A stretch of 64,000 nt of DNA, from NCBI GenBank assembly GCA_965238005.1, contig OZ250165.1, forward strand, positions 3,872,001-3,936,000, read 5' to 3'. The position numbers were made by a program, and so were the translations under genes. Source of the stretch: Longimicrobiales bacterium. Lineage in GTDB: Bacteria; Gemmatimonadota; Gemmatimonadetes; Longimicrobiales; Gaopeijiaceae. Positions within the stretch are counted from its first letter, which is position 1; every line of letters starts with the position of its first letter. Below are positions 3,887-54,146 of the stretch, one piece after another. A model generated the notes under the pieces. It searched no databases and was not told the origin of the DNA. It worked only from the letters and a program-made list of their open reading frames with translations.

Positions 3887-3891
3887 GCGGC

Positions 3892-5055: not shown

Positions 5056-5409
5056 TCAGGCCGGCAGACCGCCCCCTGCGAGTCGATCCGTCTTGGCCGC
5101 CGCGATGAAGTCGTTCTGGTGGAGACCGCCTATCTTGTGCGTCCACCAAGTGATCCTCACGATCCCCCATTCGGTCAGCAACGCCGGGTGATGCCCCTCG
5201 GCCTCCGCAAGCTCTCCCACCTTGTTGGTGAACGCGAGGGCCTCGGCGAAGTCGGGAAACGTGAACGTTCTCTCGAGGCGCTGGATCTCTTCCCGCTCGA
5301 CGATGCTCCAGTCGGGGATCTGGACGCGAAGCCTTTGTGTCTCCTCGGCTGTGACTCTAGGAGCATCGCGGCGACACGCTTCACACTTCATCTGAACGAG
5401 CTCACCCAC
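5056..5409 (-). CDS. phhB: Pterin-4-alpha-carbinolamine dehydratase
   Basis: [29 protein letters not shown]. Confidence 0.9.
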
Positions 5410-5635
5410 TTGCTTGCACCTCTGTCTATCTGTTCAACCCCGAAGATATCGTCCTGGTTTCATGGTTTCGAGGGGAAGATCGTCCGGGTTCCTCATGGCG
5501 ACTCGGTCGCGTCGTGCGTCATTGAGCCGGGTCGGGACGAGGATTCTTCGCATCGATTGCAGGACCGTTGCCGGGGGCATACGATGGGATTGGCCGTTGT
5601 GGCACCCCGCTCACCGGATTGGAAGGAGGTGGCTC

Positions 5636-6616
5636 ATGACGCACCAGACGTCCCTTGCAGCTTTGCTTTGCCTTCTGCTTGGCTGCTCGTCCAGCGACGA
5701 CGCTGCGGGCCCCAACGACGATGACTTCGGCGAGGAAGGCTGCACGTCCGGCTGTGGGAGCTGGAGCGATGCCGCGCCCATGCCGACGGCCCGCTGGGGG
5801 GTGGGAGCCGCATCCCTCGGTGGACTTCTCTACGTCGTTGGGGGAAGGCCCCCCCTCGTCGATGACACTGTAGACGCCGGCTTGACTACACTCGAAGTCT
5901 ACGATCCCCTGACGAACAGCTGGTCCCCGGGCGCGGACTTGCCCGAAGGCCTGAACGAACCGGCTGTGGCCGTTCTCGACGGGAAGCTGTTCGTGATCGG
6001 CGGGTGCTGTGGTCCTTCTACCGCGAACTTCCAGTATGACCCGGTGACCGATCAATGGGCAGCGCGAGCCTCGGCACCCCGCGCACGGCACGGGGCAGCG
6101 GCCGGCACCCTCGGCGGGAAGATCTACGTCGTCGGAGGCCAAACGGGCAGCAACGCCGAATCCTGGGTCGATGTGTACGACCCTGCGACAAACGCTTGGA
6201 CCGCCGCGGCCGCCGATCTCATTGTTCCCCGGGCCGACGTATCGGTTGCAGTGGTAGACGGCCTGCTATACGCCATTGGCGGCGCGGTGCCGGAAGGCGG
6301 CGTGCAAGATCTGGAGCGATACGATCCAGACCTCGATCAGTGGTCCCTGCGAGGTAGGATGCAATTCCTCAGAGGCATAGTGGCGGCCGGCGTCATCGAT
6401 GGGCACATCTATGCCGCGGGGCCTGGGGAGGGTGAGGGCGCGGCCACCGCAGTGTACGATCCTTCAGTCGATGTCTGGACCCGCCTAGCCGATCCACCGA
6501 GCTTCCGCACGGGAGCGAAAGGTGCGGCAGCAGACGGCCGGTTGTTCGTGTTTGGCGGAATTGGGTCGGACGAGGAGGTCCTCGACCGGGTCGAGGTATT
6601 CACCCCAGACGGTTGA
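5636..6616 (+). CDS. Kelch-repeat lipoprotein
   Basis: GGAGG RBS, lipobox LLGC, six kelch repeats (LYVVGG...YDP..W). Confidence 0.85.
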   Translation: MTHQTSLAALLCLLLGCSSSDDAAGPNDDDFGEEGCTSGCGSWSDAAPMPTARWGVGAASLGGLLYVVGGRPPLVDDTVDAGLTTLEVYDPLTNSWSPGADLPEGLNEPAVAVLDGKLFVIGGCCGPSTANFQYDPVTDQWAARASAPRARHGAAAGTLGGKIYVVGGQTGSNAESWVDVYDPATNAWTAAAADLIVPRADVSVAVVDGLLYAIGGAVPEGGVQDLERYDPDLDQWSLRGRMQFLRGIVAAGVIDGHIYAAGPGEGEGAATAVYDPSVDVWTRLADPPSFRTGAKGAAADGRLFVFGGIGSDEEVLDRVEVFTPDG

Positions 6617-6660
6617 AGACCCCAGGCTCGCACCCCCTCTCATGAACCGAAGGGCGTGAT

Positions 6661-9600
6661 TCACGCTCCGGAGACCACATCCGTCGCCACCCGCACGAGC
6701 CCCGGATTCTCCCGGCGCTCCTCCTCGAACATGTTCCGGACGCAGACGGCGAAGTGCTGGCCTCCGGGAGCGGTCCCTGTGACCGCGAGTGGGATACGGA
6801 TCTCGTCCCGCCCCTCGAAGTCCACGCTGAATCGCTTCACGAGCCCGCCGCCTCGCATCCAGGAGAGGCAAGCCGGCAGGTCGACGTGGACGAGGTCTCC
6901 GACCCGGTACCCGTCCTCGAGTCCGACCACCAGGTCGACCCGCCGCCCAGGCTGAAGGAGGCTCGGTCGCCGATCTCCGTTCTCCCGGAGACCCACCCGG
7001 ACCTCGAATCCAGCTCCGTACTCCTCCCAATCCTCCTCCCGAATGGCCAGCGCCTGCACGGCGACGGTGCCTTCGATGGACTCGACCGACTCCACACGAT
7101 CTCCGAGCTCGATCGCTTCGCTGAGGTCCATCTCCTCACCGTTCACCCGCACGCGCGCCTTGCTTGAGATCACGGACCGGATGCGCAGCTGGATCAGAAG
7201 GGCGATGGCCCCCACGGAGTCGACCGTCGAATAGAGGGCCCCGTTCTCCCCGAACTCTCCCACGACGACGTTGGCAGCCCTCAGGCCTCGGGCCACATCC
7301 CCGGCTGCGAGGAGACCCGCGGCGACGTATGCGAGCCCTGCGCGACTCGCCACCGCGTGCCCACCATTCCGGAGGCGCACCTCGTTCCCAGAGAAATCCA
7401 CGAAACGGTCGATGACGGTGAGCGCGTCTGAGCGATTTCCGCCGCCTACCAGAGTAGCGTAGGCGTCGTCCAGGGTAGCCGGCTTCGACGGGATCTTCTC
7501 GATACCGTGGAACGCGCCGGCGTCGTCTGCCATCTCGCTGCCTCTCTTCACCGCGTCCCTGAGACCCGGCGAAAGGTCCGGGATCTCCGCGAGGCGATCG
7601 AGCTTCCAGAGGTACCGGGCCGCGAGTTGGCTGTAGTGATCGCTCACGTGGCCGGACTCGGGGTACATGAGGAACCCTGCTCCCGGCCGGAACATGCTCT
7701 CTTCCCGGGCGATCCCCTTGCGGATGATCCTCTCGGCCTTGGACCTCCGCCCGTCGTCTCCGGGGGAGAGATACATCGCTACTGCCGACAGGATCTTGGC
7801 GGCTGTCTGCTCGCAGCAAAGGTGAGTATATGTGGCGGTGGTCTCGACCAGGAGGTCGAACGGCCCGTCCAGCCCGGGGAGGACCCGCAAGCTCACTGCG
7901 CCTGCGTCCTCCAGGGTGATGGACTTGCCCTCCGAGAGGAGAACGAGCTCCCGAGCGTGCGACCGGAGGCGGCCGGGCTCGGAAACCACGGCTTCCATCG
8001 AGTCGATCTCGCCCGACTCCGGATCCTCGACGCGCACCTCGTATGCCCCAGGAGCGACAGCGAACGTCAGGGCGGCCGGAGCCGAGATCTCTCCCTGCAC
8101 CGTGGCGCCGTCGGCCGATCGAAGCTCGACGGAGTCCCCGTCACGAGTGAGGCTCACGAGCGCTCGCCCCGACGCCGTCGTCACACGGAGCCGGCCGGTG
8201 ACGTCGTCGCCTGCGCGCACCATGGGTGGAATCTCCAGGTCTGCGCGCACGGGCAGGTCGATGACCAGATCACGGACGACGGCCCGCCAATCACCGGCAT
8301 CGTAGGCAAAGGCCTCGATCAGGAACGTACCCGTTCCGTCGCCCGTCCACACGGGGACCTCTGCGCGGCCCTCGACCTCGACCAGGCCGACGAAGAGAAC
8401 CGGCGGGAACTCGGCACGGGGCGGAGGGGCTGCCGCGTCCAGCGGGCTCCCCGCGTCCACCGGGATTCCCACGTCTTCCGTGCCCACCACCTCGAAGGCT
8501 TCGGCGGCCACTTCCCCGAGGAGCTCGGCCATCCCCCCCGCGGTCGCCCCTGCCTCGGCCACGTAGACCTCGGAGGGCTCGGCCATCCCCAGGTCGAGGA
8601 GGACATCCTCCATCGCAAGCCTTGGAATCCCGAATGCAACGGTCGAGGGAAAGAGCTGCTCATGGAGATCCAGCGGTTCGATCCCCCACTCCGCCATCCC
8701 CTCCGTGGCGGACTCGACCCCCCGCTTCAGAGAAGCCGCGAGGCCCGACGACGGCGTGTCGGTCCGTGTCAGGCGGCGGTCGCGCACCGTGAGCAGCACC
8801 GGAACGGCTCGCTCCGCATTCGTCTCGATCTCGAGCGTCACTTCCTCTCTGGGCCGGACCGTCTCGGGCGCCGACACCTCGACCTCCAGACGGCTCGGCC
8901 GCATAAAGGTCGTGAAGCCTTCGAAGGGCTTCCCGCCGACGATGCCTGCCGCCACGACCAGCGTAAGGCCGGAGGGGTTGTCGAGAGGAATCGAATCACC
9001 GGCGACGGCGTCCCCGTGCTCGATCACGTGAGCCACGCCCCCGACGAGGTCGAACACAAGGAGATGGAGCTGAGAGGTATCCGCATGGACCTCGATCGCG
9101 GGCTCCTCGGTGAGAACCGACTCGACGGTGAGCGGAGTGGTGAGCCGATCTCCCTCGGTGAGGTGGCCGCCCCGCATGGGCATGGAAGAGGGCTCGGGAA
9201 GCAGAGAGAACATGAACTCCAGCCCGAGCTCGTTGAGCACCGTGAGCTCACGCTCGGCCTGGCGGGTCCCCGGGATGGACACGGTGGCGATCCGACCGGG
9301 ATCCGTCTCGACCCGGGCTTCGAGGCGGAAGGGCCCTTCGCCCTCCATCTTGAGGACACCTCGGTACCGACCTGGCGCTTCCGGACGCAGCACGGCCGAA
9401 TCGACCGGACGATCGTCATCGAGCAGTGAGACCTGCAGACTCTCACCGCAGGGCTGCTGCCAGCTCTCCACCGAGAGTGCGAAGGAGAGCTGCCCGGCTT
9501 CACGGTCGGCCGCATGCTCGAGCAGTCGGGCGCTCAGGGGGGCGAGTGAGAAGTCGGCCACCGTAAACTCCGCGCGAGCCCCAAGGCGGGCTCCGGCGAC

Positions 9601-10065
9601 TTCCACGTAGGCGCAGTACTGCCCCGCAAGAAGCGCGGCGAGAGGGACGAGCTCCATCCCTTGATCGAGGGCGAGTTCCCGCTCGGCGAACGGCTGACCG
9701 TCGCACTCGACCACGAGCCTGGCGTCCGCGGAGGCGGAGGGCAAAACGACCAGGAGCTGGGCCGTGTCTTCCTCGGCGCGGTAGAGGTCTCGATCCGCGA
9801 CGACCGCGGCCAGCGGCTCCGGATCCATCCTCGAGGCGGTCAGCGTTATCCCCGGTAGGTGGACGGGCCCTGTGGAAATGGGGTACACGCGAAGGCGCTC
9901 CCCCGCCTCCGCCAGCTGAAGCCTCTTCTTTCGGCCGGAGGGCCAAATGCCGCTTCCCTTAATGGGCATCTCCACGAAGAGGAAGTCCCGGCCGGCCCAG
10001 ACGTGGCCGTCGAATTTCTCTACGAGCTTCTGGTTCGTGATCTCGATTTCGATCGGGGACTTCAT
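6661..10065 (-). CDS. Alpha-2-macroglobulin-like protein with CxEQ thioester motif, no evident signal peptide
   Basis: 1134 aa; HLCCEQT motif, PETVRPREEVTLEI and RAEFP MG-like segments, helical TED-like region, C-terminal VRNMFEEE. Confidence 0.65.
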   Translation of the reverse strand: MKSPIEIEITNQKLVEKFDGHVWAGRDFLFVEMPIKGSGIWPSGRKKRLQLAEAGERLRVYPISTGPVHLPGITLTASRMDPEPLAAVVADRDLYRAEEDTAQLLVVLPSASADARLVVECDGQPFAERELALDQGMELVPLAALLAGQYCAYVEVAGARLGARAEFTVADFSLAPLSARLLEHAADREAGQLSFALSVESWQQPCGESLQVSLLDDDRPVDSAVLRPEAPGRYRGVLKMEGEGPFRLEARVETDPGRIATVSIPGTRQAERELTVLNELGLEFMFSLLPEPSSMPMRGGHLTEGDRLTTPLTVESVLTEEPAIEVHADTSQLHLLVFDLVGGVAHVIEHGDAVAGDSIPLDNPSGLTLVVAAGIVGGKPFEGFTTFMRPSRLEVEVSAPETVRPREEVTLEIETNAERAVPVLLTVRDRRLTRTDTPSSGLAASLKRGVESATEGMAEWGIEPLDLHEQLFPSTVAFGIPRLAMEDVLLDLGMAEPSEVYVAEAGATAGGMAELLGEVAAEAFEVVGTEDVGIPVDAGSPLDAAAPPPRAEFPPVLFVGLVEVEGRAEVPVWTGDGTGTFLIEAFAYDAGDWRAVVRDLVIDLPVRADLEIPPMVRAGDDVTGRLRVTTASGRALVSLTRDGDSVELRSADGATVQGEISAPAALTFAVAPGAYEVRVEDPESGEIDSMEAVVSEPGRLRSHARELVLLSEGKSITLEDAGAVSLRVLPGLDGPFDLLVETTATYTHLCCEQTAAKILSAVAMYLSPGDDGRRSKAERIIRKGIAREESMFRPGAGFLMYPESGHVSDHYSQLAARYLWKLDRLAEIPDLSPGLRDAVKRGSEMADDAGAFHGIEKIPSKPATLDDAYATLVGGGNRSDALTVIDRFVDFSGNEVRLRNGGHAVASRAGLAYVAAGLLAAGDVARGLRAANVVVGEFGENGALYSTVDSVGAIALLIQLRIRSVISSKARVRVNGEEMDLSEAIELGDRVESVESIEGTVAVQALAIREEDWEEYGAGFEVRVGLRENGDRRPSLLQPGRRVDLVVGLEDGYRVGDLVHVDLPACLSWMRGGGLVKRFSVDFEGRDEIRIPLAVTGTAPGGQHFAVCVRNMFEEERRENPGLVRVATDVVSGA

Positions 10066-10724
10066 GATATCTCTCCCTGGTCTTTGCTCTCTATTTCCTG
10101 TTCGCCTTCCTGTTCGGTTTCATGTTCGCTCCTGAGTGTCGCGGCCGCCGTCTCGAGCGCCCGAGCGAGCGCTTCCCGTGCGGCCGGGTTCGCGACCGTC
10201 TCCGGTGGGACGTCCAGACTCGCCCCGCCGGGAAGCTCGACCCGCCGGACCGTCCGCCCCGCTAGGGGCCCGCGCGCCGGGGCACTCATCGAGGCACGGG
10301 GCGCAGCTTCACCCGGCTCGGACGGCAGGGCGATACCCTCCGCCCGGCCCTCACTCGTCTGCGAGGAGTCCGAATCCTCACCGAGGAGAAGCCGGAGGAC
10401 GGCCCCATCGTCTGCACCCTCGAGCGTGCTGCTGATCCGCGTGAGCGTGTGATGCTCCGCCTGGAGCTTCTTGATGAGAAGCAGCCTCATGAGGTGGGCG
10501 CCTCCGTAGCGGGCTCGCCCTCCCTCGTAGCCGCTCGCCCGGGGCAGAAGCCCTCGGGTGACGTAGTACCGGATCGTCCGGACGTCTGGACGGTCCGTGA
10601 CCTTGTAGCGCGTTTGGCGGTCGGCGACTAAAGGCAGCAGCCGATCGGCCTCGTCCACGAGGTCGTCGATCGTCATTCCCTGGCGGGACTGAATCTCCTG
10701 AAACACGTCGCGCAGCTCGCTCAT
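10062..10724 (-). CDS. MerR-family HTH transcriptional regulator
   Basis: RTIRYYVTRGLLP...ARYGGAHLMRLLLIKKLQ; ATGA overlap with downstream gene. Confidence 0.8.
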   Translation of the reverse strand: MSELRDVFQEIQSRQGMTIDDLVDEADRLLPLVADRQTRYKVTDRPDVRTIRYYVTRGLLPRASGYEGGRARYGGAHLMRLLLIKKLQAEHHTLTRISSTLEGADDGAVLRLLLGEDSDSSQTSEGRAEGIALPSEPGEAAPRASMSAPARGPLAGRTVRRVELPGGASLDVPPETVANPAAREALARALETAAATLRSEHETEQEGEQEIESKDQGEIS

Positions 10725-10730
10725 ACTTCG

Positions 10731-10759
10731 ATTATAGTATATAGTGTTACTACTGTCAC
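10731..10759 (-). promoter_or_regulatory. Sigma70-type promoter, probably leaderless
   Basis: Minus strand GTGACA-17 nt-TATAAT, then 6 nt to the ATG at 10724; no Shine-Dalgarno. Confidence 0.7.
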
Positions 10760-10781
10760 CGGAGACCCGCTGAGGTGCCTC

Positions 10782-11863
10782 GGCGTTGGTGCACGGCTCC
10801 TGATTTTACCTTCGAGGCCAGACGAAGCCCTCGACCCGGGAGGCGCCACCGATGAGGTATCCGAAGCGAACCCAGTACAAGTATGCGAAGTCTCGATATC
10901 GGGTGCGGAATTGGGCTGAATACGAGGCCGGCCTCCGGAGACGAGGCGACCTGACCGTCTGGCTTTCGGATGACGCGCTCGACTTCTGGCGAGCAGCGCC
11001 GAACGGCAAACCCGGTGGCCAGCGCACCTACACTGACGTCGCGATCGAGGCCGCACTGACGATTCGCATGGTCTTCCACCTTCCGCTTCGACAGACTGAG
11101 GGCTTCCTCCGTTGCCTGGCAGAGATCCTCGAGGTCGATCTCCCAATCCCCGATCACACCACGCTGTCTCGGCGGCTGAAGAAGCTCAGTGACATTCAAT
11201 TTCGCAGGCTACCGACCGATCGATCGATCCACCTGCTCATCGATAGCACGGGACTCAGGGTCCACGTCGGCCATCTGCGGAAACCGCCAAAGAGAAGGGC
11301 TTGGAGGAAGTTGCACCTCGCGGTCGATGCTGCATCAGGTGAGATCGTCGCATCGGATTTGACCGCTCGCCGGACGCACGACTGCACCCAGGTCCCGGCC
11401 GTGCTTGAGCAGATTGCTGATCCCATCGCATCGGTCTTGGCGGACGGCGCGTACGACAGCAAGGCGGTCTACGAAGCCGCCCATGGGCGGGGTGACGGAC
11501 CGGCGGTGCGTGTGCTCATTCCACCTGGACGCAACGCCCAGCTCAGCCCGAAGCCGTCGGCCGCACTCCAAGAGAGAAATCGCAACATTCGCTCGATCCG
11601 AGAACTCGGGCGGCGCGAGTGGCACACGTCCTCAGGCTACAGCCAGCGCAGCCTGGTGGAGAATACCGTCTTCCGATACAAGACGATCATCGGTCGAAGT
11701 ATGCGAAGTCGATCCATCGACGGACAACGAGTTGAGGTGCATCTGGCGAGCAAGATTCTCAACACGATGACCCTGCTTGGGATGCCGGACAGCTACCGCG
11801 TGGAGTGATTTACGCTTGGGGGATGGGGGATCTGTCCTCTGCTCCAAGCCATGCACCAACGCC
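10782..11863 (+). mobile_element. IS5-family insertion sequence (IS903 group)
   Basis: Terminal IRs GGCGTTGGTGCA(C/T)GGCT, 16/17 match; no target duplication seen. Confidence 0.9.
10852..11808 (+). CDS. IS5-family DDE transposase
   Basis: NWAEYEAGLRRRGDLTVW, PDHTTLSRR, IDSTG, WRKLHLAVD, ADGAYD, YSQRSLVE. Confidence 0.95.
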   Translation: MRYPKRTQYKYAKSRYRVRNWAEYEAGLRRRGDLTVWLSDDALDFWRAAPNGKPGGQRTYTDVAIEAALTIRMVFHLPLRQTEGFLRCLAEILEVDLPIPDHTTLSRRLKKLSDIQFRRLPTDRSIHLLIDSTGLRVHVGHLRKPPKRRAWRKLHLAVDAASGEIVASDLTARRTHDCTQVPAVLEQIADPIASVLADGAYDSKAVYEAAHGRGDGPAVRVLIPPGRNAQLSPKPSAALQERNRNIRSIRELGRREWHTSSGYSQRSLVENTVFRYKTIIGRSMRSRSIDGQRVEVHLASKILNTMTLLGMPDSYRVE

Positions 11864-11993
11864 TCCTGGAGGCCAGTGGGTAGCGTTTTTTTGTGCTCAT
11901 TCCGGATGCAAACGGGATGCATTTTGGAATATCGAGGCTGACGAGAGAGGCCCCACAGGGCTAGAAAGCCTTACGGGGCCTCATCTTTCTCAG

Positions 11994-41926: not shown

Positions 41927-43344
41927 CGCACGGGTTCTCCAGCGTCGCCCAAGGGATCGCGATTCTGCTGTCTGACCACTATGCCGACCAGCGGCGTGAG
42001 CTGGCGCGCGACGTTATCGATTCCCTCGTTTGGGTCCTTCCGCCGTTCCGATCACAAACGCGGCGAGTTCAGCCCAACGGACGGGAGACGGCTTCAATTC
42101 TTCGAGAACCTCGTCGGCAGTCGTGCCTCTGAATGGCCCCTCGTGCCCCTTCTTCGCCTTGTACGCCGCCACAGCACGACGGACGACGGGTTGCTCATCA
42201 GGCGTCAAGTCCATGACCGTAAACCTAACGGTACTCGCCTGTGCCGATGCTGACAGCGACCAGAGTCGAACTCACGGCCTCATGCTTCAGCGGCATGAAT
42301 CTTCTCAGCCTGATTCCTCTGCCGGATCTCCAAAACAATATCCACCGAACATTCTTTTCAGTCGCCCAGGGAGCCTCGCAAGGTCTATGCATATCTAAAG
42401 GGTGCGTATGGGACCCTTTTGGGGGGCATCGGTTGGATTTGAGGAGCGGGATGAGGTTCGGAAGCTTCCCATGCAACCAGACCGAACACACTGCTGAAGA
42501 GGGCTGAGCAGATGCTGCGGTAACCGTCTATGAAGCTTCCTGAGGCTCCCTGCCTCCCCTGCTCTACTCTTGATCGATCCGATACTCCACTACCTCACCT
42601 CTCGGACGATAGTGGCTCGCATGGCCATACGTGTCCTCGATGCGCGCCACGCTCTTGTGCCCCATCTCCTTCGCGACGGTCCAGAGCGCGATTTGCCTCC
42701 CGCCATCTGTGGCCTGGAGACGTGCCGTGGCGTAGGTGTGGCGGAACTTGGTGAGTCGAGGCTCGGGCATTCCGGCTTTGGAAGCGATGATGCCCAACGA
42801 CTTCCGTAGATCGGTGATCATCTCTCCGGTGCGGCTGGGGAAGAGAAGCTCATCGGGACTCTGGCCTAGTTCCTCGACGTATGGCCGAAGAATCTCCTCA
42901 AGCTGTGGCCACAGCGGCACGGCTCGCTCACTCCACACACGCTTGAGCCCGCGATACCGGTTGGGCTGGATGCGAACCAGCTTGTTCTCTAATTCCATAT
43001 CGCTCACCAGCAGCCCGAGCACCTCACTCCGCCTGCCACCGGTAAGCAGGAACGTGGCTATCAACTCGTAATGGAGATCGAGTCTCCGGGCTGCATCAAG
43101 GAACTGGCCAGCCGCATCGATTTCATAGAACTCATCTGTCCGCTGCCGCGTCGGGGCGATGGAGGGCAAGCCGTGTAGCCCCCTGACGGGATTGTATCCG
43201 AGGGGGACAACCTCCATCTCTGGAGCTGTCCCGTTTCAGTGGACGGGTGAACACTGAGGTTTATAGTCTGTCCCCCTCGCTGGGGAGAGGAAAGCTTCCC
43301 CCGCGCAGCGGGGGAGTAAAGGGCAACTTGGCCACGCAGGTTTC

Positions 43345-44196
43345 TCATGCTGCCGCTCCGTGGCGACGCTCGAAGTTGATGGGCGACAGCTGACCCAGTG
43401 CCGAGTGTCGCCTCCGGGGGTTGTAGAAGCCCTCGATGAAGTCGAACACGGCCATCTTCGCCTCGGCCTGGGTCCGGAAGCGCTGCCGGTCGAGTAGCTC
43501 GCACTCGAGCGTCGCGAAGAAGCTCTCGCACATCGCGTTGTCGTAGGCGTCGCCCACGGAGCCCATCGAGGGCCGCACACCGACATCGTTGCAGCGTAGG
43601 CCGAAGGCGATCGAGGTGTACTGGGTTCCCTGATCACTGTGATGGATGACGCATTCGGGCCGGCGCTGCCAGGTCGCCATGTTCAGCGCGTCCAGGACGA
43701 GCTCGGTGCGCAGGTGCGTAGCCATCGACCACCCGACCACCCGCCTGCTCCAGACGTCGAGCACAACCGCGAGGTACAAGAACCCCGCCCAGGTCGGGAT
43801 GTAGGTGATGTCGGCCACCCACAACTGGTCTGGCCCGTCTGCGCTGAAGTCCCGCTCGATGAGATCCGGCGCGGGACGGGCGTCCTCGTTGCGCCTGGTC
43901 GTCTTCGGGCCGCGCCGCCTCCGGCTAGCTCCCACAATCTCGGCCTGCTTCATGAGCCGGCCCACCCGCTTCTCACCGACCCGCTCGCCAGCTTCCTTGA
44001 GGTCCGCGTAGATGCGGGGCCGGCCATAGACCCTTCGGTTCTCGCGCCAGACCGTCTCGATCCGCTCTGTGAGCTCCTCATCTCGCTTCGCCCGAGCCGA
44101 AGGCTCGCGATCCAACCAGGCGTAGTAGCCGCTGGGGGAGAGATCCAGCACACGGCACATCGCCCGCACAGGGAAGTCGGCCTGATTCGTCTTCAT
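43345..44196 (-). CDS. IS3 transposase OrfB (DDE)
   Basis: WVADITY, HHSDQGTQY, DNAMCESFF. Confidence 0.95.
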   Translation of the reverse strand: MKTNQADFPVRAMCRVLDLSPSGYYAWLDREPSARAKRDEELTERIETVWRENRRVYGRPRIYADLKEAGERVGEKRVGRLMKQAEIVGASRRRRGPKTTRRNEDARPAPDLIERDFSADGPDQLWVADITYIPTWAGFLYLAVVLDVWSRRVVGWSMATHLRTELVLDALNMATWQRRPECVIHHSDQGTQYTSIAFGLRCNDVGVRPSMGSVGDAYDNAMCESFFATLECELLDRQRFRTQAEAKMAVFDFIEGFYNPRRRHSALGQLSPINFERRHGAAA

Positions 44197-45089: not shown

Positions 45090-45131
45090 CCCCGCCAGGG
45101 ACTCGAACCCCGAACCTACTGATTAAGAGTC
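45090..45131 (-). repeat. att site: duplicated 3' half of tRNA-Lys
   Basis: 42 bp identical to 52062-52103. Confidence 0.95.
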
Positions 45132-45248
45132 CGCTAGCAACATATACGCAGAGTGCCCGTGAGGTCCTCTAAGTTGTGGCGAGTTAGGGCGTTAGGGGGT
45201 CGGTTGTTCTCTCGAGCGGCCCGGAGATTCGACCAGTTTCGGGGAGTT

Positions 45249-45269
45249 TGGGGTCCCGGTTGGGGTCCC
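45249..45269 (+). repeat. Putative integrase arm-type site, TGGGGTCCC x2 (period 12)
   Basis: Same doublet at 48518-48538 and 51964-51984. Confidence 0.65.
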
Positions 45270-45491
45270 ATCACGCTGATTATGGCATGGGCTTCCGCCA
45301 CGGTTTCGGAGAGCAGCGGATGGCTGAAAAGGCCTCTTGTCGCGGTGGTAGATTGAGACCAGGTTTCGTCAGCCTTTCTTCGATCTCCTAGCCTTGTGGC
45401 TCGCGCACTACGCCCGCGGTCACCACATTAGCCGCGCAGCAGAAGCGCAAGGCTGTGGGCGGCCCGCGGAGCCGGTGGGGTAAGTGGTGCA

Positions 45492-46355
45492 ATGGCCAAA
45501 ACGATCGCGAGCGCTTTCAGCCAGTTAAAGGCCAACTTGGAGATAACCGGACTACAAACCGCGACGGTGTCTACTCGCCAGAAGTACGTTCGGGAGGCTA
45601 TGGTGGATGGATTTGATATTCTCTCATCCTTCCTTTCAGGCTCGTACTCTAGGGCCACCATGATCGCGCCGCTGAAGCGCAGCGATGTCGACATATTTTT
45701 CGTTCTGCGTTCCAAGTACTTTGAGAAATATACTCCCGCGCAGATTCTCGATCGTGTACGGACTGTTCTTCTTCGGACCTACAGCCAGACGCCCAAGATC
45801 AGCCGCAACGGTCAAGCGGTAACGATCACGTTCAGAGACTTCAAGGTGGATGTGGTGCCCGGATTCAATCGCAGGGGTGGGGGCTATCTGATCCCGGACT
45901 CGATCGCAGGGGAGTGCATTCCGACCGATCCGAAGGTGCACGACACGACGCTCTCCGCAGCCAACAAGACGCATGGAGGCGATCTGGTGCCCCTGGTGAA
46001 GATGCTCAAGGGGTGGAACCGCGGGATCAACGACGGCTTCGTCGGTTTCTACTTAGAACTCCTGGCAAAGAAGGTGCTCACCAATGTCACGATCAGCGAC
46101 CTCTCGAGCGGAGTGCGTTTCGTCCTGGACAAGGGTCAAGACGACGTTCGGTACCAGATCACGGATCCTGCTGGCTATGGCTCTCACATCAACCCTCTGG
46201 CCAACGTCTCAACCGTCGAGGCTGCAGTGAGTCGTTTTGGTACCGCCTGTAATCGGGCCCGGAAGGCGGAGAATTTCGCGGAATCGGGTAAGATACCAGC
46301 TGCGTTTGAAGAGTGGCGCAAGATTTTCCCGCATTACTTCCCTAAATACGGCTAG
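45492..46355 (+). CDS. SMODS / cGAS-DncV-like nucleotidyltransferase
   Basis: SFLSGSYSRATMI..SDVDIF, NGQAVTI.F..FKVDVVPG, YLIPD, LVKMLKGWN, EWRKIF..YFP. Confidence 0.9.
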   Translation: MAKTIASAFSQLKANLEITGLQTATVSTRQKYVREAMVDGFDILSSFLSGSYSRATMIAPLKRSDVDIFFVLRSKYFEKYTPAQILDRVRTVLLRTYSQTPKISRNGQAVTITFRDFKVDVVPGFNRRGGGYLIPDSIAGECIPTDPKVHDTTLSAANKTHGGDLVPLVKMLKGWNRGINDGFVGFYLELLAKKVLTNVTISDLSSGVRFVLDKGQDDVRYQITDPAGYGSHINPLANVSTVEAAVSRFGTACNRARKAENFAESGKIPAAFEEWRKIFPHYFPKYG

Positions 46356-46359
46356 CTCG

Positions 46360-46872
46360 ATGTCCGAATCGGATGCGCTACAGCCCCTCTCCGTGGAGGC
46401 CTCCAGGGTTGAGGAGGATTCGCTCTACTCTGCCCGTGGCCATTTCGAGACCGCTCGATCGTGGTCCAAGACTCACTTGTCGCTTGGAATTCCCACTGCC
46501 GTGATTGCGGGGCTGTCCGGTGTCTCAGCACTGCAAGACGCACCCCTCCTCGCTGGCGGGCTAGCGATCATTGCTGCGGCTCTGGCGTCAGTGGCGACTT
46601 TCGTAAACCCGTCAGAACGTGCGGCCGCACACCACACCGCGGGCACGAAGTTCAACTCTCTTCGAAATCGAGCTCGCATCTTCCGCGAAATTGATCTCCC
46701 CGGTCCACTCTCCATCGGGGAGAAGACGGAACAGCTGAGGACGCTCAGTCAAGAGCGAGACGAAGCCAACGAGACGAGCCCTCAGATTACCCGACGCGCG
46801 TTTAAGAGAGCAAGAAAGGGAATCGAGGCAGGTGAGGCACGTTACGCGATAGACGAAGAGCCAGCGTCGTGA
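46360..46872 (+). CDS. SLATT-family 2TM effector
   Basis: HFETARSW..HLSLGIP, two TM helices, FVNPSERAAAH, PQITRRAFKRARKGI. Confidence 0.85.
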   Translation: MSESDALQPLSVEASRVEEDSLYSARGHFETARSWSKTHLSLGIPTAVIAGLSGVSALQDAPLLAGGLAIIAAALASVATFVNPSERAAAHHTAGTKFNSLRNRARIFREIDLPGPLSIGEKTEQLRTLSQERDEANETSPQITRRAFKRARKGIEAGEARYAIDEEPAS

Positions 46873-47756
46873 ACCCAGTTGCGGTCTCGTTCCAACGCTT
46901 GATCCTTAGGATCCAGCCACCCTCAAGGGCCGTAGCCGCTGCGCGTGGCCAAATCGAGTCTGTTCGGGCGTCGGTCGTCAGACATCTCCGAGCACCAGTA
47001 CGCCGCTTCGTCAACCTAGGAAGCTACCAGAAAGGCACCGGAATTCGCGGGCGCTCTGACGTCGATCTGCTGTTTGTGATTTCTCCGGAACACGTCTCTT
47101 GGGGCGGAGGGCACATCACTTCGACCGTTTAGCTCTTAGAGCGATTCCGTCGAGCGATCTCAGCGACCTACCCTACTACCTCCATCGGTCGGGATGGTCA
47201 GTCGGTGACAGTCCGATTCGCTCGAACCGGTGTGGACCTCGACATCGTGCCAGCAGTCGAAGCCGGAAAGGTCAAGAACGCCAACCTCTATTCCATCCCC
47301 GATGGCTCCGGAGGTTGGATGAATGTCGCGCCTTTGGCAGAACTGAGGCGCTTTAAGGTGGCGGATGGGGGTAGTGGCGGGAAGCTCAGAAGGGCGGTCC
47401 AACTCTTGAAGTGGTGGAAGCATTCTCGTGCAGATGAGGTGCGGATTAGGTCGTATTACGTCGAGCTCGTCCTGACGGTCGCCGGTGTCGCGAACGGTCC
47501 GAAACCGTATTCACATATCCTTTTGGATTCGCTCGGAGTACTTGCCGACCGGGGAGCTGCGGGAATGCGTGACCCTGACGGTCGAGTGGGGGTTACTGCT
47601 GCAGTGCCGCCACGAGGGAGTGCGGACCGGGTCGTTGAATCCTTACGCCGGGCTCGGGATTACGCGGCCGAAGCCGTATGGTACGAAGAACACGGCTCTA
47701 TGGAACGGGCGGTGACCAGGTGGAGGGTATTTTTCAACGGTAAGTTTCCAGCCTAG
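46869..47756 (+). pseudogene. Second SMODS-type nucleotidyltransferase with one in-frame TAG (47130-47132)
   Basis: GSYQKGTGIRGRSDVDLL, then same frame after TAG: RDGQSVTVRF..DLDIVPA, YSIPDG.GGW, WRVFFNGKFP; GTGA overlap with SLATT. Confidence 0.85.
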
Positions 47757-47837
47757 ACCGCCGTCCATCTAACCTCGGGACATGTCCGGGGCCCACCATT
47801 CGAGTACGGAATCTTGGAACAGGACGGGGACTTGCTC

Positions 47838-48386
47838 ATGACGAATTCGGATGACATCAACTTCCTAACGAGACCCCTGATCGACGCGTACCTGGAGACC
47901 TGCGTTGCCCTCATGGTTCTCAAAATACCCCAGGTACAGGACTTGGTCGGCGCCAGTATTCCCGAAGAGGCGGTAGTGTCCACGTCATATGCGGCGGATC
48001 ACGAGAACCTGGTCATCAACGTCAGGGGGATGCTCGAGTCCATGAGGGCCGAGGGGCTGGACGACGTCAGGACCCTTCAACACTCGTTCCGTCAAACGAA
48101 CCGCATCTTCCTCGGCGCAATGTGGGATGCGCTGAAGCAGCATCGGCGTTTCGATGAGATCAAGACGGAACCGGTAGTGGAGTTCCTTAGACATGTTCGC
48201 AACGCGTCCTCGCACGGTGGGCGGCTGAACTTCGGGAAGCTGAAGCGTCCAGCGAATTGGCGAGACAAGGAGATAACCGAGTCGATGAGCGGGACGCCGG
48301 TGTTTCCTGACCTACTGCAAGACGGAGACCCCATCCTACTTGTGGTCGACATCAACAACGACTTCTTCGAGCCGATCAACATATGA
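47838..48386 (+). CDS. Hypothetical protein with HEPN-like RxxxxH motif
   Basis: Helical-looking 182 aa; EFLRHVRNASSHGG. Confidence 0.6.
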   Translation: MTNSDDINFLTRPLIDAYLETCVALMVLKIPQVQDLVGASIPEEAVVSTSYAADHENLVINVRGMLESMRAEGLDDVRTLQHSFRQTNRIFLGAMWDALKQHRRFDEIKTEPVVEFLRHVRNASSHGGRLNFGKLKRPANWRDKEITESMSGTPVFPDLLQDGDPILLVVDINNDFFEPINI

Positions 48387-48916
48387 GGGGGCTGAAGGCG
48401 GTGGGCGCGACCGAGGGCCTCATTCGCGACATGACCTCTCGAGCCGTTCGGAGGCGTGGTCAGGTCACACGAGTTCGCCTCCCATCCGCCGAGTTCCTCT
48501 CACGTAACCCGAGTTTTTGGGGTCCCACTTGGGGTCCCATAGGACACGGGATCGAGCCAGGGAGATCATGACCCGACGGTCCGCGGGCTAAGGTCAGGAA
48601 GTCAACGCCGGCAAGGCGGATGGGGTTTTCGCGGAGCACGGGCCCCCCAAAGCCTCAAATGTCATCCTCAACTTGCCAGATCTCGCAATACAAGCCGCAG
48701 TCCTGACAGCACCTGCCCATCATGGCCTCAAGGCGTACTACAAGTTGATCTGATGCCGCGGTTTCTCCCGGGACGGGCCGGGATCCTTGGAACATCCCGA
48801 ATTGGGATGGTCGCCTTCGCACAAGCTGGCCCAATTCTGGAAAGCCGGTGCGGACTCGCACGGAGTTGTGGGTGCGGCACAAGCCGTCGGCAAGGACGGC
48901 TTGACGACCCACGAAT

Positions 48917-49666
48917 CTACGCGTCGAGCAGCACCTCCAGCAGCTGTGCCTGTTCATGTTCCGAAGCGACGCTCTCCAGAACAACCACCGAGAGGGTTGC
49001 CCATCGCGCCGAGTACAGCCCGAGGCGAGTCACCTCTCCTTCAAGGAACCCGTCGACGCCGTACCGGTTAGCTAGCACCGCGTAAGCCAGCAGTTGGTGG
49101 ACATGGCGATCGGTTGTTCGCGCATCTGTGGAGGTCTTGAAGTCTACGAGCATGTCGTCGATCACGAGGTCAGCGTCGGCTCCCCCGACAGCGTTCGATC
49201 CATCGCCGAAGCTGGGACCGATCACCATCCGTTCATTGTACGAGAAAAGGTTCAGGTCGGTGATCGCCACGAGGGCAGCTACCTCACGACACACGGCCAA
49301 CGCCGAGGTTCTTCTTCCATCCGAGGGGGCATGCCCCCGGGCCCGGTGGTCGTGGTCGGTGAGTGTCATCAGCGCCCGACAGGCAGAGGCCGACCAATTG
49401 TCGGACGCCCAGGCCGTTTCCACGATCGCGATGTCGGGACTCGGATCGGTCTCACAATACCGTTCGAAGGGCAGCGGCCTTACCGGGAGGTCGTGTCGTC
49501 GACCAAGACCGATTCGGAGGGCGTAGTCAAACGCCGTACCTACGCACCGGGGTGGGGCAGTACTCTCAACCCGCAAGGGTTCCGACATGGGCGCAAATGG
49601 GTTGTTAGACAAGGCCTTGAAGGCCTCTTCCACAGCTTCAGTCCGGAGTAGCGCCGTGAGGCTCAT
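48917..49666 (-). CDS. PD-(D/E)XK-fold nuclease
   Basis: VGTAFDY, GGADADLVIDDMLVDFKT, QLLAY; TGATG overlap with upstream ORF. Confidence 0.75.
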   Translation of the reverse strand: MSLTALLRTEAVEEAFKALSNNPFAPMSEPLRVESTAPPRCVGTAFDYALRIGLGRRHDLPVRPLPFERYCETDPSPDIAIVETAWASDNWSASACRALMTLTDHDHRARGHAPSDGRRTSALAVCREVAALVAITDLNLFSYNERMVIGPSFGDGSNAVGGADADLVIDDMLVDFKTSTDARTTDRHVHQLLAYAVLANRYGVDGFLEGEVTRLGLYSARWATLSVVVLESVASEHEQAQLLEVLLDA

Positions 49667-50010
49667 CAGAGATCCATGCCCAGCGCCAAGGAGTAGACCA
49701 ACTCCACCAATTCCTCGATCCTCTCGTCCATATCGGGGATCTCACGCCTCTCGGGCGGCGGAACCCCGCGATGGGACGCCGAGCCGTGCCAGCGCAAGAG
49801 GGCCGAGAGGTCCAGCAGGGCTCGCCTCAGTGCCGCCCGGCGCTCGCGTGGCACCGCCTCGTGCAGATCCCGTTCGATCCAGGCTTCGATGGCCGCAGGG
49901 CCCAGGCCGGGTAGTGCGTTCCGAGCGAGTCCAGACGGCTTGTTTACGGCTCGGACGATTCGCCGTTCAAGTCGGACCCGCTCGACGAACGGGTGCCCGG
50001 CGCTAGGCAA
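49666..50010 (-). CDS. Small helical hypothetical protein
   Basis: 114 aa, TTG start; overlaps the NTase stop and the nuclease start. Confidence 0.65.
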   Translation of the reverse strand: MPSAGHPFVERVRLERRIVRAVNKPSGLARNALPGLGPAAIEAWIERDLHEAVPRERRAALRRALLDLSALLRWHGSASHRGVPPPERREIPDMDERIEELVELVYSLALGMDL

Positions 50011-50716
50011 CTGGCACTACCTCCAGAGATCGATCCAGCCAAGCCTGAATCCGCTCGCACAAGGACAACAGGGACTTGTAGTCGACGGCTGGCCCATGCG
50101 ATCCACGCTCCGAGGCTCGGCGACTCGTCACGAGCGCCTCGTATTCAGCCTCGCTAAGCGGACAACACAGGTGGGAACCTCCCTGGAGTCTAAGTGGAGC
50201 CCAGGGAGAGAAGTCCGGACGGCCCAGGTGGTCCGACAGCACGATTCCGGCATTACGTACTACCGTGCCCAGCACGCCAGTATCGTACTCGCCGCTGAGG
50301 TCGTCCAGGGTCAGAGACTCGACAATGTCCCTCAAGAGATCGCGCAGGGTCGCGAGGTCTCGATGGTGGTGCCGGTATGGTTGAAGCGAGGTGAGGCGAG
50401 TCTTGAGCCAACCGTTTCGGCTCAAGAGCTCCACACCCTCGAGCTTGAGATGAAGAGCAAACAGCGACGGCGGCTCCAGGATCGACTCGATGCCTTCCAA
50501 AGTGTACGTGGAAAAATCCACCGCAGTCGCGGATTCGGGGATCGATCGGCGCAGCGTCTCGACCAGTTCCAGATCGCCCTCGTCGGCCACCACCACCAGG
50601 ACGTCGATGTCGCTGCCGCTATCGCGTGTCCCGCGCGCGTGGGACCCGAACAGCCACACCTCCCATACTTTGTTGGGGAGTCCGAGGCCGCTCAGCTCTG
50701 TCGGATCGAAATCCAT
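50003..50716 (-). CDS. Pol-beta-fold nucleotidyltransferase, Hailong HalB-like
   Basis: WLFGSHARG..DSGSDIDVLVV, DFSTY, SLFALHLKLEG, helical C-terminal domain; overlaps the HalA-like gene. Confidence 0.75.
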   Translation of the reverse strand: MDFDPTELSGLGLPNKVWEVWLFGSHARGTRDSGSDIDVLVVVADEGDLELVETLRRSIPESATAVDFSTYTLEGIESILEPPSLFALHLKLEGVELLSRNGWLKTRLTSLQPYRHHHRDLATLRDLLRDIVESLTLDDLSGEYDTGVLGTVVRNAGIVLSDHLGRPDFSPWAPLRLQGGSHLCCPLSEAEYEALVTSRRASERGSHGPAVDYKSLLSLCERIQAWLDRSLEVVPVA

Positions 50717-51600
50717 CGATAAACGACGGCAGCCAGGACGCCCGTGTAGACGATGCCGAGAACGGCCTGAATCGTGCTTGGGATTTGGAAGTCGCTCGAC
50801 CCTCCATACGTGGCCGACGTCCCGGCGAATCCCCTCGCGCTGTGGAGGAGAGCCTCAGTCGCCGCCCCTACGATCGATGCTGCACTACCGTCAAAACCGA
50901 ACGCGCCAGCGTCGACGCCCAGATACCAACCAGCGAACGCGACCACCAGGACGAGGCCCAGCAAACCAATTTGCAGTAGGCTTTCGCCGTAGCCCCACAT
51001 CCAGCGTTCCATGTGGGAGACCACCAGGCGAAAGAAGGCTCCCACCCGGTCGAAATGACTGAATCGCGTCTTGAAGTAATCTTCCTTGTACCGAACCGTC
51101 GCCCACAACTGGCGCCGTCTCTGGTTCATTGATTCGAACAGGATCGACCGGGCCGAGGTCCCGTCTCCCTGCGTGATCGCATTCGTCCGGAGAGACTCCA
51201 GAACTTCGTGGCATACGTTAGGCCACTCGTATGGTAAGTGTGGACTCAGGGTGGCAAAGGGAATGGCGGTGTCTGACCATCTGGAGTAAGCAAACTTGCA
51301 TGCCGTGAACTGAACTTTGCGGAACTCGCAACCGGTGAACCTGCAGTCCTTGAAGTCGCAATGATCGAACGTCGTATGGCGGAAGTAACAGTCGACGAAC
51401 ACGCTGTGCGAAAAGTCGACGTGCTCGATCTCGCAATCTTCGAAGCGGACCCCCGTGAACAGGGCATACCTTAGAAGGCGGTTCTCTCCCTTCAATTGCA
51501 GCTCGACGTACCGCTCGTCTACAATGGCCGAGTTTTCCGATTCAGCGCCGAAGGGGCTCAGCGAGCCCTCGACCTTCTTCCGGGATCCCAGGTTGATCAC
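50692..51600 (-). CDS. Pentapeptide-repeat plus 2TM ion-channel protein, Hailong HalA-like
   Basis: About 11 Fxxxx repeats; WGYGES-TM1-pore-like segment-TM2; GGAGG RBS. Confidence 0.75.
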   Translation of the reverse strand: MINLGSRKKVEGSLSPFGAESENSAIVDERYVELQLKGENRLLRYALFTGVRFEDCEIEHVDFSHSVFVDCYFRHTTFDHCDFKDCRFTGCEFRKVQFTACKFAYSRWSDTAIPFATLSPHLPYEWPNVCHEVLESLRTNAITQGDGTSARSILFESMNQRRRQLWATVRYKEDYFKTRFSHFDRVGAFFRLVVSHMERWMWGYGESLLQIGLLGLVLVVAFAGWYLGVDAGAFGFDGSAASIVGAATEALLHSARGFAGTSATYGGSSDFQIPSTIQAVLGIVYTGVLAAVVYRWISIRQS

Positions 51601-52059
51601 GCCGCACCCTCCGTCCGGTGACCCTCGCTGGCGTCAGTCCGCATCGTCGAGACCCATGCTATACGCGGCTCATGATCGCATGCGCATTCCCCCACTCGCA
51701 AGGAGGGCGCTTCGCTCGTCATTCGGCAATGCTCTTCACGATCACCACGCCCCTGGCCATTGGTCGCTGTGGGGCGAACGGGGCAGCGCCCAGAGCGGCC
51801 GCATACCGATCATCCAATCCGCCCTCACCCTCGACGGCAGGTCGTTGCCGCCCTGGGGTGGGCGGCGTGTCTCAAAGGGCAACCACCCGTGCCCGCCAGT
51901 AGCCATGAGGTCACCCGAGTCCCCTCCCGTGCCGACCAGTCCCCGCCAGGTAACCGGAATTTTTGGGGTCCCATGTGGGGTACCAAAGCCCCCTTTTCGG
52001 GCCCTAACTCATCGGTACGAAAAGGCGGAAGCCCCTGTATTCCAAGGACTTCCGCCTAG

Positions 52060-52133
52060 TACCCCGCCAGGGACTCGAACCCCGAACCTACTGATTAAGA
52101 GTCAGTTGCTCTAGCCAGTTGAGCTAGCGGGGC
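52060..52133 (-). tRNA. tRNA-Lys(CTT), CCA not encoded
   Basis: GCCCCGCTAGCTCAACTGGCTAGAGCAACTGACTCTTAATCAGTAGGTTCGGGGTTCGAGTCCCTGGCGGGGTA. Confidence 0.97.
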
Positions 52134-53052: not shown

Positions 53053-53664
53053 TCACTTGAAGTTCAAACGCATCGTGAGCCGTCTCACCTTTGAGATCGT
53101 ATTTGGTGAGCAACCCATTAATTTCTGGATCTCTACCCCCTTGTAGCCTCGCTGGAGGTAATCGGTAATCCGCTGGATTCGGGGCTTCCGTAGAAACTTG
53201 GCCCTTCCCTCAACACTTCCGGGTTTCCGACCGACATAGGCCCCTTTCGCCTTCGCAATCGCTATCCCTTCCAGCTGTCTCTCACGGATCTGTGATCGCT
53301 CCATTTCGGCGACGACACCGAGTACACTGATCACGAGTCGAGAAGTAGAGTTCTGACGGCCATCGTCATCGAGAGTACGAAGTCCCTCCTTTTGAATACG
53401 AATGGGGACCTGGTGTTCGGTGAAGAGTTCGATGGTCTTTAGGATGTCGAGCAGATCCCGACCCAACCGGTCCAAGGAATGGACGACCAGTTCCTCTAAA
53501 TCTCCGGTGTTTATCGTGTCCACGACCATTCGTCCAGCTGGACGCTCTTGAAACGGTATTGATCCCGAACACCGATCTTCGAAAACCTTCATGCCCTCGA
53601 TCGACGTGAGTTGCCGATCAGTCTTCTGATCCAGTGAACTGACCCTAGCGTAGAATGCGATCAT
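53053..53664 (-). CDS. Serine recombinase (resolvase/invertase)
   Basis: YARVSS.DQ..DRQ, LDRLGR, AEMERSQIRERQLEGI, C-terminal HTH. Confidence 0.93.
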   Translation of the reverse strand: MIAFYARVSSLDQKTDRQLTSIEGMKVFEDRCSGSIPFQERPAGRMVVDTINTGDLEELVVHSLDRLGRDLLDILKTIELFTEHQVPIRIQKEGLRTLDDDGRQNSTSRLVISVLGVVAEMERSQIRERQLEGIAIAKAKGAYVGRKPGSVEGRAKFLRKPRIQRITDYLQRGYKGVEIQKLMGCSPNTISKVRRLTMRLNFK

Positions 53665-53685
53665 CCAATGTACCTCGTGAATCAT

Positions 53686-53724
53686 TACTATTTTAGGATA
53701 TACGGCCAAAACTCTAAAATAGTA
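53686..53724. promoter_or_regulatory. AT-rich inverted repeat, candidate res site
   Basis: TACTATTTTAG-17 nt-CTAAAATAGTA just upstream of the resolvase. Confidence 0.55.
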
Positions 53725-54146
53725 TATTTTCGACCATATTCCAAGACAATTTTCCTTGGTGGTTTGGTACGACGTTCTATCCTCGGAGGCCCCACGGTCC
53801 CTTGTAGGGGGGAGCTTCAACTCAGTTCATCACTGAATTCTCTACAGGTCGGTCCTGTGGAATTCCCCGAACACCTCGACTCGACAACCAAGCATCCACG
53901 AGATCTTGGTTCACGTTCTCATACCAGAGGGTGGTCTTCTCAAGTTTCTTCCCCTTCTTGAGACTACGACACCGTCCAATCGCCTTTTCCTTCCACCAGT
54001 CCACGACCTCCGGTCGAGGCCCCCTTCCGAGCCCTGTCTCACTGGGAGCGATAGCTCCTAATCCTGGCGCTCGACTGGTGGAAGACCCATGGTATGATCC
54101 GGCTGGTCTCCTTTTCGAGAGCCCGAGTCAGCTCGCGTTGCGACTC

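Follow-up and report, generated by a model that had tools for sequence, protein, structure and literature searches.

Hailong is among the few defence systems in which a constitutive DNA ligand shuts an ion channel, and its mechanism has been solved for a two-gene form. The available parts of the published accounts describe a two-gene operon (PMC13434031, PMC13586616), in which HalA, a pentapeptide-repeat protein with an inward-rectifier potassium (IRK) channel, is encoded upstream of HalB, a nucleotidyltransferase (NTase) with a HEPN-like part (PMC13586616, PMC13434031). According to the same parts and to that of a further source, tyrosine-primed oligo-dA from HalB keeps the HalA tetramer shut for as long as no phage exonuclease has removed the oligonucleotide (PMC13434031, PMC13276650, PMC13586616). 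Here we analysed a locus of four overlapping genes in a 64,000-nt stretch of DNA from a Longimicrobiales bacterium (contig OZ250165.1, positions 3,872,001 to 3,936,000 of the forward strand), hereafter called the window. Our preferred reading, to which we assign a probability of roughly 0.6, is that the locus encodes a three-gene, distantly Hailong-like abortive-infection system with an appended modular nuclease gene. The four genes are as follows.

50692-51600, minus strand: gene 1, 302 aa, predicted HalA-like effector
50003-50716, minus strand: gene 2, 237 aa, predicted HalB-like NTase
49666-50010, minus strand: gene 3, 114 aa with a TTG start, predicted four-helix bundle
48917-49666, minus strand: gene 4, 249 aa, predicted nuclease of the PD-(D/E)XK type, from a Cas4/RecB-like family without a name

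An original prediction made for this DNA had proposed four overlapping minus-strand open reading frames (ORFs), and these were confirmed from the ORF list and the sequence: genes 1 and 2 overlap by 25 nt, genes 2 and 3 by 8 nt, and genes 3 and 4 by 1 nt (TGATG). Homologues of all four ORFs were found elsewhere, and they are therefore real genes and not chance ORFs. The domain content proposed for them was likewise confirmed, with PF13599 in gene 1, PF01909 in gene 2, no family for gene 3 and a weak PD-(D/E)XK match for gene 4. The claim of an undescribed system did not survive; the locus is read instead as a Hailong variant whose genes 1 and 2 are remote homologues of HalA and HalB.

Gene 1 carries pentapeptide repeats (Pfam PF13599, 2.4e-12) and a hydrophobic C-terminus. 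An N-terminal pentapeptide beta-helix (about residues 25-110) leads through a helical linker to the membrane/pore region at the C-terminus, where helices are predicted at residues 208-229, 240-258 and 269-301. The NCBIfam HalA model (NF051894) was its top match, with an E-value of 2.7e-12 and 46.6 bits over the pentapeptide region only, and HalA was the best family for 14/14 members of the gene 1 clade (best E 2.7e-12). The architecture of solved HalA (PDB 9nyi: beta-helix, helical linker, membrane pore) is present in the gene 1 model, and HalA was the sole full-length structural match of that model. For the pore region, the only matches were weak ones to KirBac3.1 (E 0.05-0.09).

Gene 2 encodes a Pol-beta-type NTase (Pfam PF01909, 1.1e-8; PF18765 also matched) with a GS...DxD core formed by G24, S25, D36 and D38, all four invariant in the ten aligned relatives, and a helical C-terminal domain after it. 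Its top NCBIfam match was HalB (NF051895), with an E-value of 3.8e-10 and 39.7 bits over profile positions 4-95 of 211; the same family ranked best for 10/10 transferases of the clade (best E 4.6e-17). When the clade profile, built from the ten relatives, was compared with the PDB, HalB (9dbj/9dbh) was matched at E 3.3e-13 and the next minimal NTase at 6e-8. An LFxxHLxxEG block outside the catalytic core is common to the clade and HalB, and Y71, invariant in the clade, aligns with Leu in HalB. On sequence comparison, then, the core of gene 2 is closest to HalB among solved NTases. The proposed HalA/HalB likeness of genes 1 and 2 is upheld by these top family ranks in both clades, by HalB as the best PDB match and by HalA as the only full-length structural match. 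Because their scores lie far below the NCBI cut-offs for HalA and HalB, we conclude that genes 1 and 2 are remote homologues and not equivalogs.

The third gene is the part of the locus in which the clade departs from the described operon. A small ORF of 97-142 aa overlaps or abuts the NTase stop in 16/16 loci, counting those with the gene 1-2 pair and at least 350 nt downstream (the window, L001, L002, L029-L033, L036, L039, L040, L045 and L054-L057). A single sequence accounts for L036, L039 and L040, and the loci therefore represent 14 distinct lineages, in all of which gene 3 abuts or overlaps the transferase stop. Lineages with the trio include a Longimicrobiales metagenome-assembled genome (MAG), a Kiloniellaceae MAG, a viral contig and plasmids of Rhizobium, Pseudomonas, Salinivibrio and Priestia. 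A gene 3 hidden Markov model (HMM) matched 13/16 of these loci at E <= 1e-3, six of the 13 matching sequences having belonged to the model's own alignment; the third ORFs of L054, L056 and L057 lie outside its matches and share the N-terminal motif by eye. An exhaustive profile search placed 149 representative clusters in the family at E <= 1e-3, and 36 when the threshold was <= 1e-10; lengths were 90-140 aa in almost every case.

The motif reads F8-x-x-R11-x-R13-x-x-R16 in the window, and [Y/F]xxRxRxxR is essentially fixed in an alignment of 99 sequences (Y 95/99, F 4/99; R11 98/99, R13 98/99, R16 99/99), which gives the family three fixed arginines. The four F-type members are the window, P0046, L001 and L002. 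The predicted structure of gene 3 is a four-helix bundle (predicted local distance difference test, pLDDT, 80.9; predicted TM score, pTM, 0.75), for which we found no meaningful structural neighbour, no known fold and no significant HEPN fold match; searches of Pfam, NCBIfam, PADLOC, PDB and Atlas likewise returned no match for the protein. The conserved Rx4-6H motif of HEPN proteins was not found in gene 3, H80 of the window being C, S or A in other members. The third gene is a conserved part of the clade, which forms a three-gene Hailong-like variant. The earlier suggestion that genes 3 and 4 form an accessory module holds in its first half, since gene 3 recurs at 16/16 loci, and fails in its second, gene 4 being found at only 1/14 loci (the window).

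Two matches to the gene 3 family had unusual lengths. One, of 326 aa, consists of an NTase that continues by read-through into a part resembling gene 3. In the other, P0107 (315 aa), gene-3-like residues 5-99 are joined to residues 130-306 of the sce7726 family (NF033832, 2e-30, above cut-off), a domain that carries a D...E-I-K...Q..Y pattern by eye. P0107 may be a natural fusion, or its gene call may span a frameshift. Its C-terminus was considered as kin of gene 4, and this was rejected when hhalign found no relation (probability 0.4%).

Gene 4 was matched by Pfam PF12705 (PDDEXK_1) at E 0.047 and 14.1 bits, under the 22-bit gathering cut-off, and by the PADLOC models PDC-S61 (1.7e-6) and RTasPDDEXK (5.7e-5), which also matched 9/16 and 15/16 members of its family, respectively. 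Its homologues fell into 30 clusters, which carry neither Pfam domains nor informative names. The conserved block is GGADAD(161-166)...D175-F-K177...Q191xxxY195, in which D164, D166, K177, Q191 and Y195 are invariant in 16/16 aligned sequences (alignment A5), and the family also keeps GxAxDYxxR. Gene 4 is thus predicted to have a complete PD-(D/E)XK plus QxxxY nuclease signature, D175 of the window included. Searches of PDB sequences with gene 4 and with the family profile returned nothing meaningful. Cas4 has four conserved cysteines of an Fe-S cluster; no cysteine stands in the invariant or near-invariant columns of alignment A5, and the PADLOC Cas4 models reached only E 0.019-0.064 on gene 4. 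The N-terminus Met-Ser-Leu(-Thr) is invariant across the 16 relatives, phage copies included, at an overall identity of just 26-34%, which is unusual for a cytoplasmic enzyme.

A conserved four-gene system, as originally proposed, was not recovered. The gene 4 family HMM found a member at only one of the 14 related loci with enough downstream DNA, with tblastn in agreement, and in only one of the 314 genomes of the family-level group; in both cases this was the window, in its own genome. The fourth position at other loci is taken by an IS3 insertion sequence (IS) element; by an RT_UG22 reverse transcriptase with DUF5677; by a 624-aa unassigned ORF; by small unassigned ORFs; by a 161-aa ORF followed by a HEPN_Cthe2314 gene; or by nothing. 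Relatives of gene 4 stood alone among phage genes in 4/4 viral contigs, directly 3' of an AAA ATPase on a Deinococcus plasmid and after cas3'' in a haloarchaeal type I-B locus; UvrD-helicase proteins from plasmids of Streptomyces match the catalytic block as well. In this survey of neighbourhoods, gene 3 was kept beside the pair, whereas gene 4 relatives were solitary in phages or lay by unrelated defence genes. The data favour an add-on over a core component: gene 4 appears to be a lineage-specific, promiscuous modular nuclease outside the conserved system.

The gene 1 family is rare. A word-indexed search gave nine clusters and a search of genome contigs two loci; further loci came from metagenomes (13) and viral contigs (1), and in the phylum sample there were four full-length matches in 401 genomes, with 18 further genomes matching in the repeat region only. 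With gene 2, tblastn returned five plasmid records, of which four were inspected. Records with the trio branch are Gemmatimonadota-like, alpha- and gamma-proteobacterial and of Bacillota, and include small plasmids and a viral contig; the 6.9-kb Pseudomonas plasmid pGLE121P1 has, apart from mob and toxin-antitoxin (TA) genes, no cargo other than the trio. The NTase of the viral contig had no match in phages by tblastn. PADLOC 2.0 made no defence-system call for gene 1 or gene 3 and gave gene 2 generic candidate NTase models only; the PGAP names of the plasmid homologues of genes 1 and 2 are generic only. Canonical HalB was found at E <= 1e-20 in 0/401 genomes of the class of G401, with sub-cut-off matches only in G401 and G402. 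No three-gene Hailong form was found in the literature searched, which lay outside the primary Hailong paper and all supplements, and Rousset 2022 makes no mention of pentapeptide, Hailong or nucleotidyltransferase.

Several of these loci show features of their own. In the same phylum, the trio of L029 (6196-8960) is followed by an RT_UG22 reverse transcriptase of the DRT (defence-associated reverse transcriptase) type (1.1e-97) and a DUF5677 protein, and that of L031 (5228-6154) by a DUF5677 protein alone. A large molybdopterin oxidoreductase gene directly precedes the trio in L029, L030, L031 and L032, and the insertion site is therefore conserved. On the Salinivibrio plasmid L056 (1858-3552), an IS4 transposase interrupts the gene 1 homologue, while the NTase and the third gene are intact; this is the pattern expected if loss of a toxic effector is tolerated and loss of its suppressor is not.

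Direct support from the data extends to the homology and architecture of genes 1 and 2, the conservation of gene 3, the intact catalytic motifs of genes 2 and 4, the non-conservation of gene 4 and the island context. For the ligand, the gating and the trigger, and for what genes 3 and 4 do, we infer the following model. Gene 1 would be a HalA-like channel with a pentapeptide cytoplasmic domain on a K-channel-like pore that lacks a conserved selectivity filter, and depolarisation of the cell would follow its opening. The channel would be kept shut by a nucleic-acid ligand, the constitutive product of gene 2, and would be released once a phage nuclease destroyed this ligand. Gene 3, an Arg-rich protein of four predicted helices, would be the obligatory third subunit of the clade; it most probably acts together with the enzyme or with what the enzyme makes, and could, for example, hold or present the ligand, limit its length or sense a phage factor. 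Protein priming would be an attractive role for the Y-type majority and misfits the Phe of the window. Gene 4, presumably co-transcribed and translationally coupled here, would be a mobile nuclease module of the kind that joins various defence systems, and it may act as an effector in its own right, as a second arm or as an enzyme that processes the ligand.

A more far-reaching version, which we regard as rather improbable, makes the clade a distinct three-component 'guard' system, in which gene 3 is the missing mechanistic piece and the nuclease appended in this genome makes the channel ligand. Gene 3 might then be a dedicated carrier or primer for the HalB-like transferase, which would build the inhibitory nucleic acid on it or together with it, a possibility raised by the Tyr in 95/99 members and the three invariant adjacent arginines; or it might be a phage-sensing subunit that broadens the range of triggers. 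If the version were true, processing by the nuclease would free the system from host nucleases.

The genomic setting of the locus comprises a tRNA-bounded island and its flanks, with the following features.

52059-52133, minus strand: tRNA-Lys(ctt) (ARAGORN), integration target of the island
45090-45131 and 52062-52103: 42-nt direct repeat of the tRNA-Lys 3' part, 100% identity (repeat search)
48462-48542 and 51908-51988: 81-nt repeat with TTTGGGGTCCCnnnTGGGGTCCCAT, with a shorter third copy at 45247-45271 (repeat search and alignment)
48880-48903, minus strand: GC-rich hairpin without a T-run, starting 14 nt past the gene 4 stop
45492-46355, plus strand: oligonucleotide cyclase of a cyclic oligonucleotide-based antiphage signalling system (CBASS) (PADLOC 3.7e-90, SMODS 4.8e-23)
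about 46360-46872, plus strand: SLATT two-transmembrane (2TM) effector, 4 nt past the cyclase (PADLOC 3.3e-59, NCBIfam SLATT_4 6.5e-38)
46869-47756, plus strand: second cGAS/DncV-like nucleotidyltransferase (CD-NTase) gene, directly after the SLATT gene, with one in-frame TAG at 47130-47132
47814-48386: 190-aa ORF without an assigned family, 3' of the second CD-NTase gene
53053-53820, minus strand: serine recombinase (Resolvase, 4.5e-27), just beyond the tRNA
43345-44196, minus strand: IS3-type transposase (rve, 4.8e-25), left of the island
42564-43217, minus strand: tyrosine-integrase fragment of 217 aa (6.1e-12), left of the island

The proposed tRNA island is real: given the perfect 42-nt copy of the tRNA-Lys 3' part, the four genes lie in a tRNA-bounded island, which measures 6.97 kb and is bounded by the repeats. 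No integrase gene was found within these bounds. The two full copies of the 81-nt repeat bracket exactly the four-gene operon in a 3.4-kb segment; the TTTGGGGTCCCnnnTGGGGTCCCAT motif occurs in eight genome copies on one strand only and in none of the reversed control. The hairpin 3' of gene 4 (-29.5 kcal/mol, z -3.41) was matched by 0/200 shuffles and is likely to mark the end of the transcription unit; a scan for consensus promoters and terminators gave nothing above shuffles, and the hairpin at 48880-48903 was not among its calls. Contigs of one sequencing run (X2), which may be the source run, cover the whole stretch with 0 differences, and other sequencing runs gave short fragments only, identical or roughly 88% alike.

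The same island holds a type I CBASS pair on the plus strand (45492-46872), and the TTTGGGGTCCCnnnTGGGGTCCCAT repeat separates the CBASS part of it from the four-gene segment. The second CD-NTase gene is otherwise open, with cyclase models matched on both sides of its single TAG, and is therefore either a pseudogene or subject to read-through. In the same-genus genome G853 (L058, G853:C3:461500-476000, 2465-11891), a tRNA-Lys(ttt) is followed by two segments of ~4.5 kb, each ending in a ~172-nt copy of tRNA 3' fragment plus spacer, a repeat that may accompany the gain of segments. Their cargo consists of pseudopilin, hydrolase, cytochrome c and molybdo-oxidoreductase genes, with no defence genes. 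The idea that repeat-bounded segments are dedicated defence cassettes was rejected, as similar segments of G853 carry pseudopilin, hydrolase and oxidoreductase genes. Synteny with two same-genus genomes was not recoverable, the matches being limited to repeats and IS-like pieces.

A number of results weigh against the reading of the locus as a three-gene Hailong-like system with an added nuclease. The kinship with HalA and HalB holds in rank, these being the best family and fold matches, but not in score: gene 1 does not reach the HalA equivalog cut-off (NF051894, 250 bits) nor gene 2 that of HalB (NF051895, 190 bits). Globally, the gene 1 model superposes poorly on HalA (TM 0.31, root-mean-square deviation 7.9-12.9), and the pore half of the model has middling confidence (pLDDT 45-69). 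The likeness of gene 1 to HalA at the sequence level is restricted to the pentapeptide region, and the gene 1 clade profile matched generic pentapeptide proteins at 3e-14 as against 0.0028 for HalA; by sequence alone, its relation to HalA is ambiguous. No alignment to HalB was obtained for the C-terminal half of gene 2. Support for one gene 3 family across its subtypes is moderate at the level of sequence, the F-type (A8) and Y-type (A9) alignments being matched by hhalign at E 4.7e-4, probability 32.5%, over 94 collinear columns, and their link is supported by agreement in position and size. Since no canonical loci were retrieved, the statement that canonical Hailong lacks gene 3 rests on reviews. 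Finally, the 1-nt overlap of gene 4 and the repeats around all four genes make its functional integration at this locus possible.

These last points belong to an alternative that we hold to be unlikely, in which all four genes form one system and gene 4 either trims a long transferase product into the channel ligand or serves as a second, DNA-degrading effector. The gene 4 start overlaps the stop of gene 3 by 1 nt with no hairpin between them, the sole strong hairpin comes after gene 4, and the 81-nt repeats enclose all four genes as one segment. A parallel is offered by P0107, whose gene-3-like part is fused or read through to the sce7726 domain (NF033832, 2e-30) with its by-eye D...E-I-K...Q..Y, and gene 4 relatives are the last gene in other defence operons. 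On the other side, the gene 4 family is absent at 13/14 related loci and in the other 313/314 family-level genomes, the trio stands alone on small plasmids, and gene 4 relatives are solitary in 4/4 viral contigs; moreover, a constitutive nuclease that destroys the ligand should itself trigger the channel.

Still less probable is that genes 2 and 3 are MNT-HEPN-like, the transferase nucleotidylylating the aromatic/Tyr site of gene 3 or the channel, so that a modified protein and not free DNA would control the channel. The gene order resembles what we take to be that of MNT-HEPN modules, with a helical protein of ~110 aa overlapping the minimal NTase that precedes it, and MntA is the second-best NCBIfam family for 10/10 clade transferases (best E 4.2e-10). 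Such a modification would be suited by the Tyr that 95/99 gene 3 members have at motif position 8, and also by the tyrosine priming of HalB itself described in the available part of its report (PMC13434031). Gene 2, however, scores 27.7 bits against the MntA cut-off of 60 and higher, 39.7 bits, with HalB; the residue at the motif position is Phe in gene 3 of the window, P0046, L001 and L002; and the conserved Rx4-6H HEPN motif is missing, H80 of the window aligning with C, S or A. Genes 2 and 3 thus show neither a 60-bit MntA score nor a HEPN partner with Rx4-6H. A non-defence role, with a ligand-regulated ion channel and housekeeping regulators that lie in a mobile island by chance, is very improbable: the channel pairs with a HalB-like NTase, the cassette occurs on plasmids, in a viral contig and beside CBASS, DRT (RT_UG22, 1e-97) and HEPN genes, and its distribution is patchy, with four full-length matches per 401 genomes of the phylum.

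Compared with known systems, the locus would share a logic with inhibitory-signal ('tripwire') systems such as Panoptes: if the analogy holds, a constitutive nucleotide product suppresses a membrane effector in both, whereas, in the available part of the account of Panoptes, the enzyme family (mCpol), the ligand (a cyclic dinucleotide) and the effector differ (PMC12657230). Like MNT-HEPN (MntA-HepT, a type VII TA system), it has a minimal Pol-beta NTase followed by an overlapping small helical protein, and MntA is the second-best family for gene 2; unlike MNT-HEPN, gene 2 lies under the MntA cut-off, gene 3 has neither a conserved Rx4-6H nor a significant HEPN fold match, and the unit includes a membrane effector gene. 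Gene 4 shares the D...(D/E)xK...QxxxY block with PDC-S61, RTasPDDEXK (the DRT-associated PD-(D/E)XK nuclease) and Cas4/RecB nucleases, but it differs from them in having no Pfam-level assignment, no invariant cysteine set and no solved sequence relative. This Cas4-like nuclease module attaches to Hailong-like, ATPase, CRISPR I-B and reverse transcriptase (RT) systems.

The closest likeness is to Hailong. The order is the same: the effector, which combines pentapeptide repeats with a K-channel-like pore, comes first, and the NTase coupled to it carries a helical C-terminal domain; the distribution is mobile and patchy; and genes 1 and 2 find their best family and structure matches in HalA and HalB. 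The differences are an identity of only 15-17% in structural alignments, with window scores at ~1/5 of the equivalog cut-offs, and a third gene in 16/16 related loci where the described operon has two genes, the order of the first two being kept; the window adds a fourth gene, for a nuclease. The locus is thus a new Hailong variant and not an entirely undescribed system, and it reveals a second, widespread branch of Hailong in which the third gene is always present in the loci examined.

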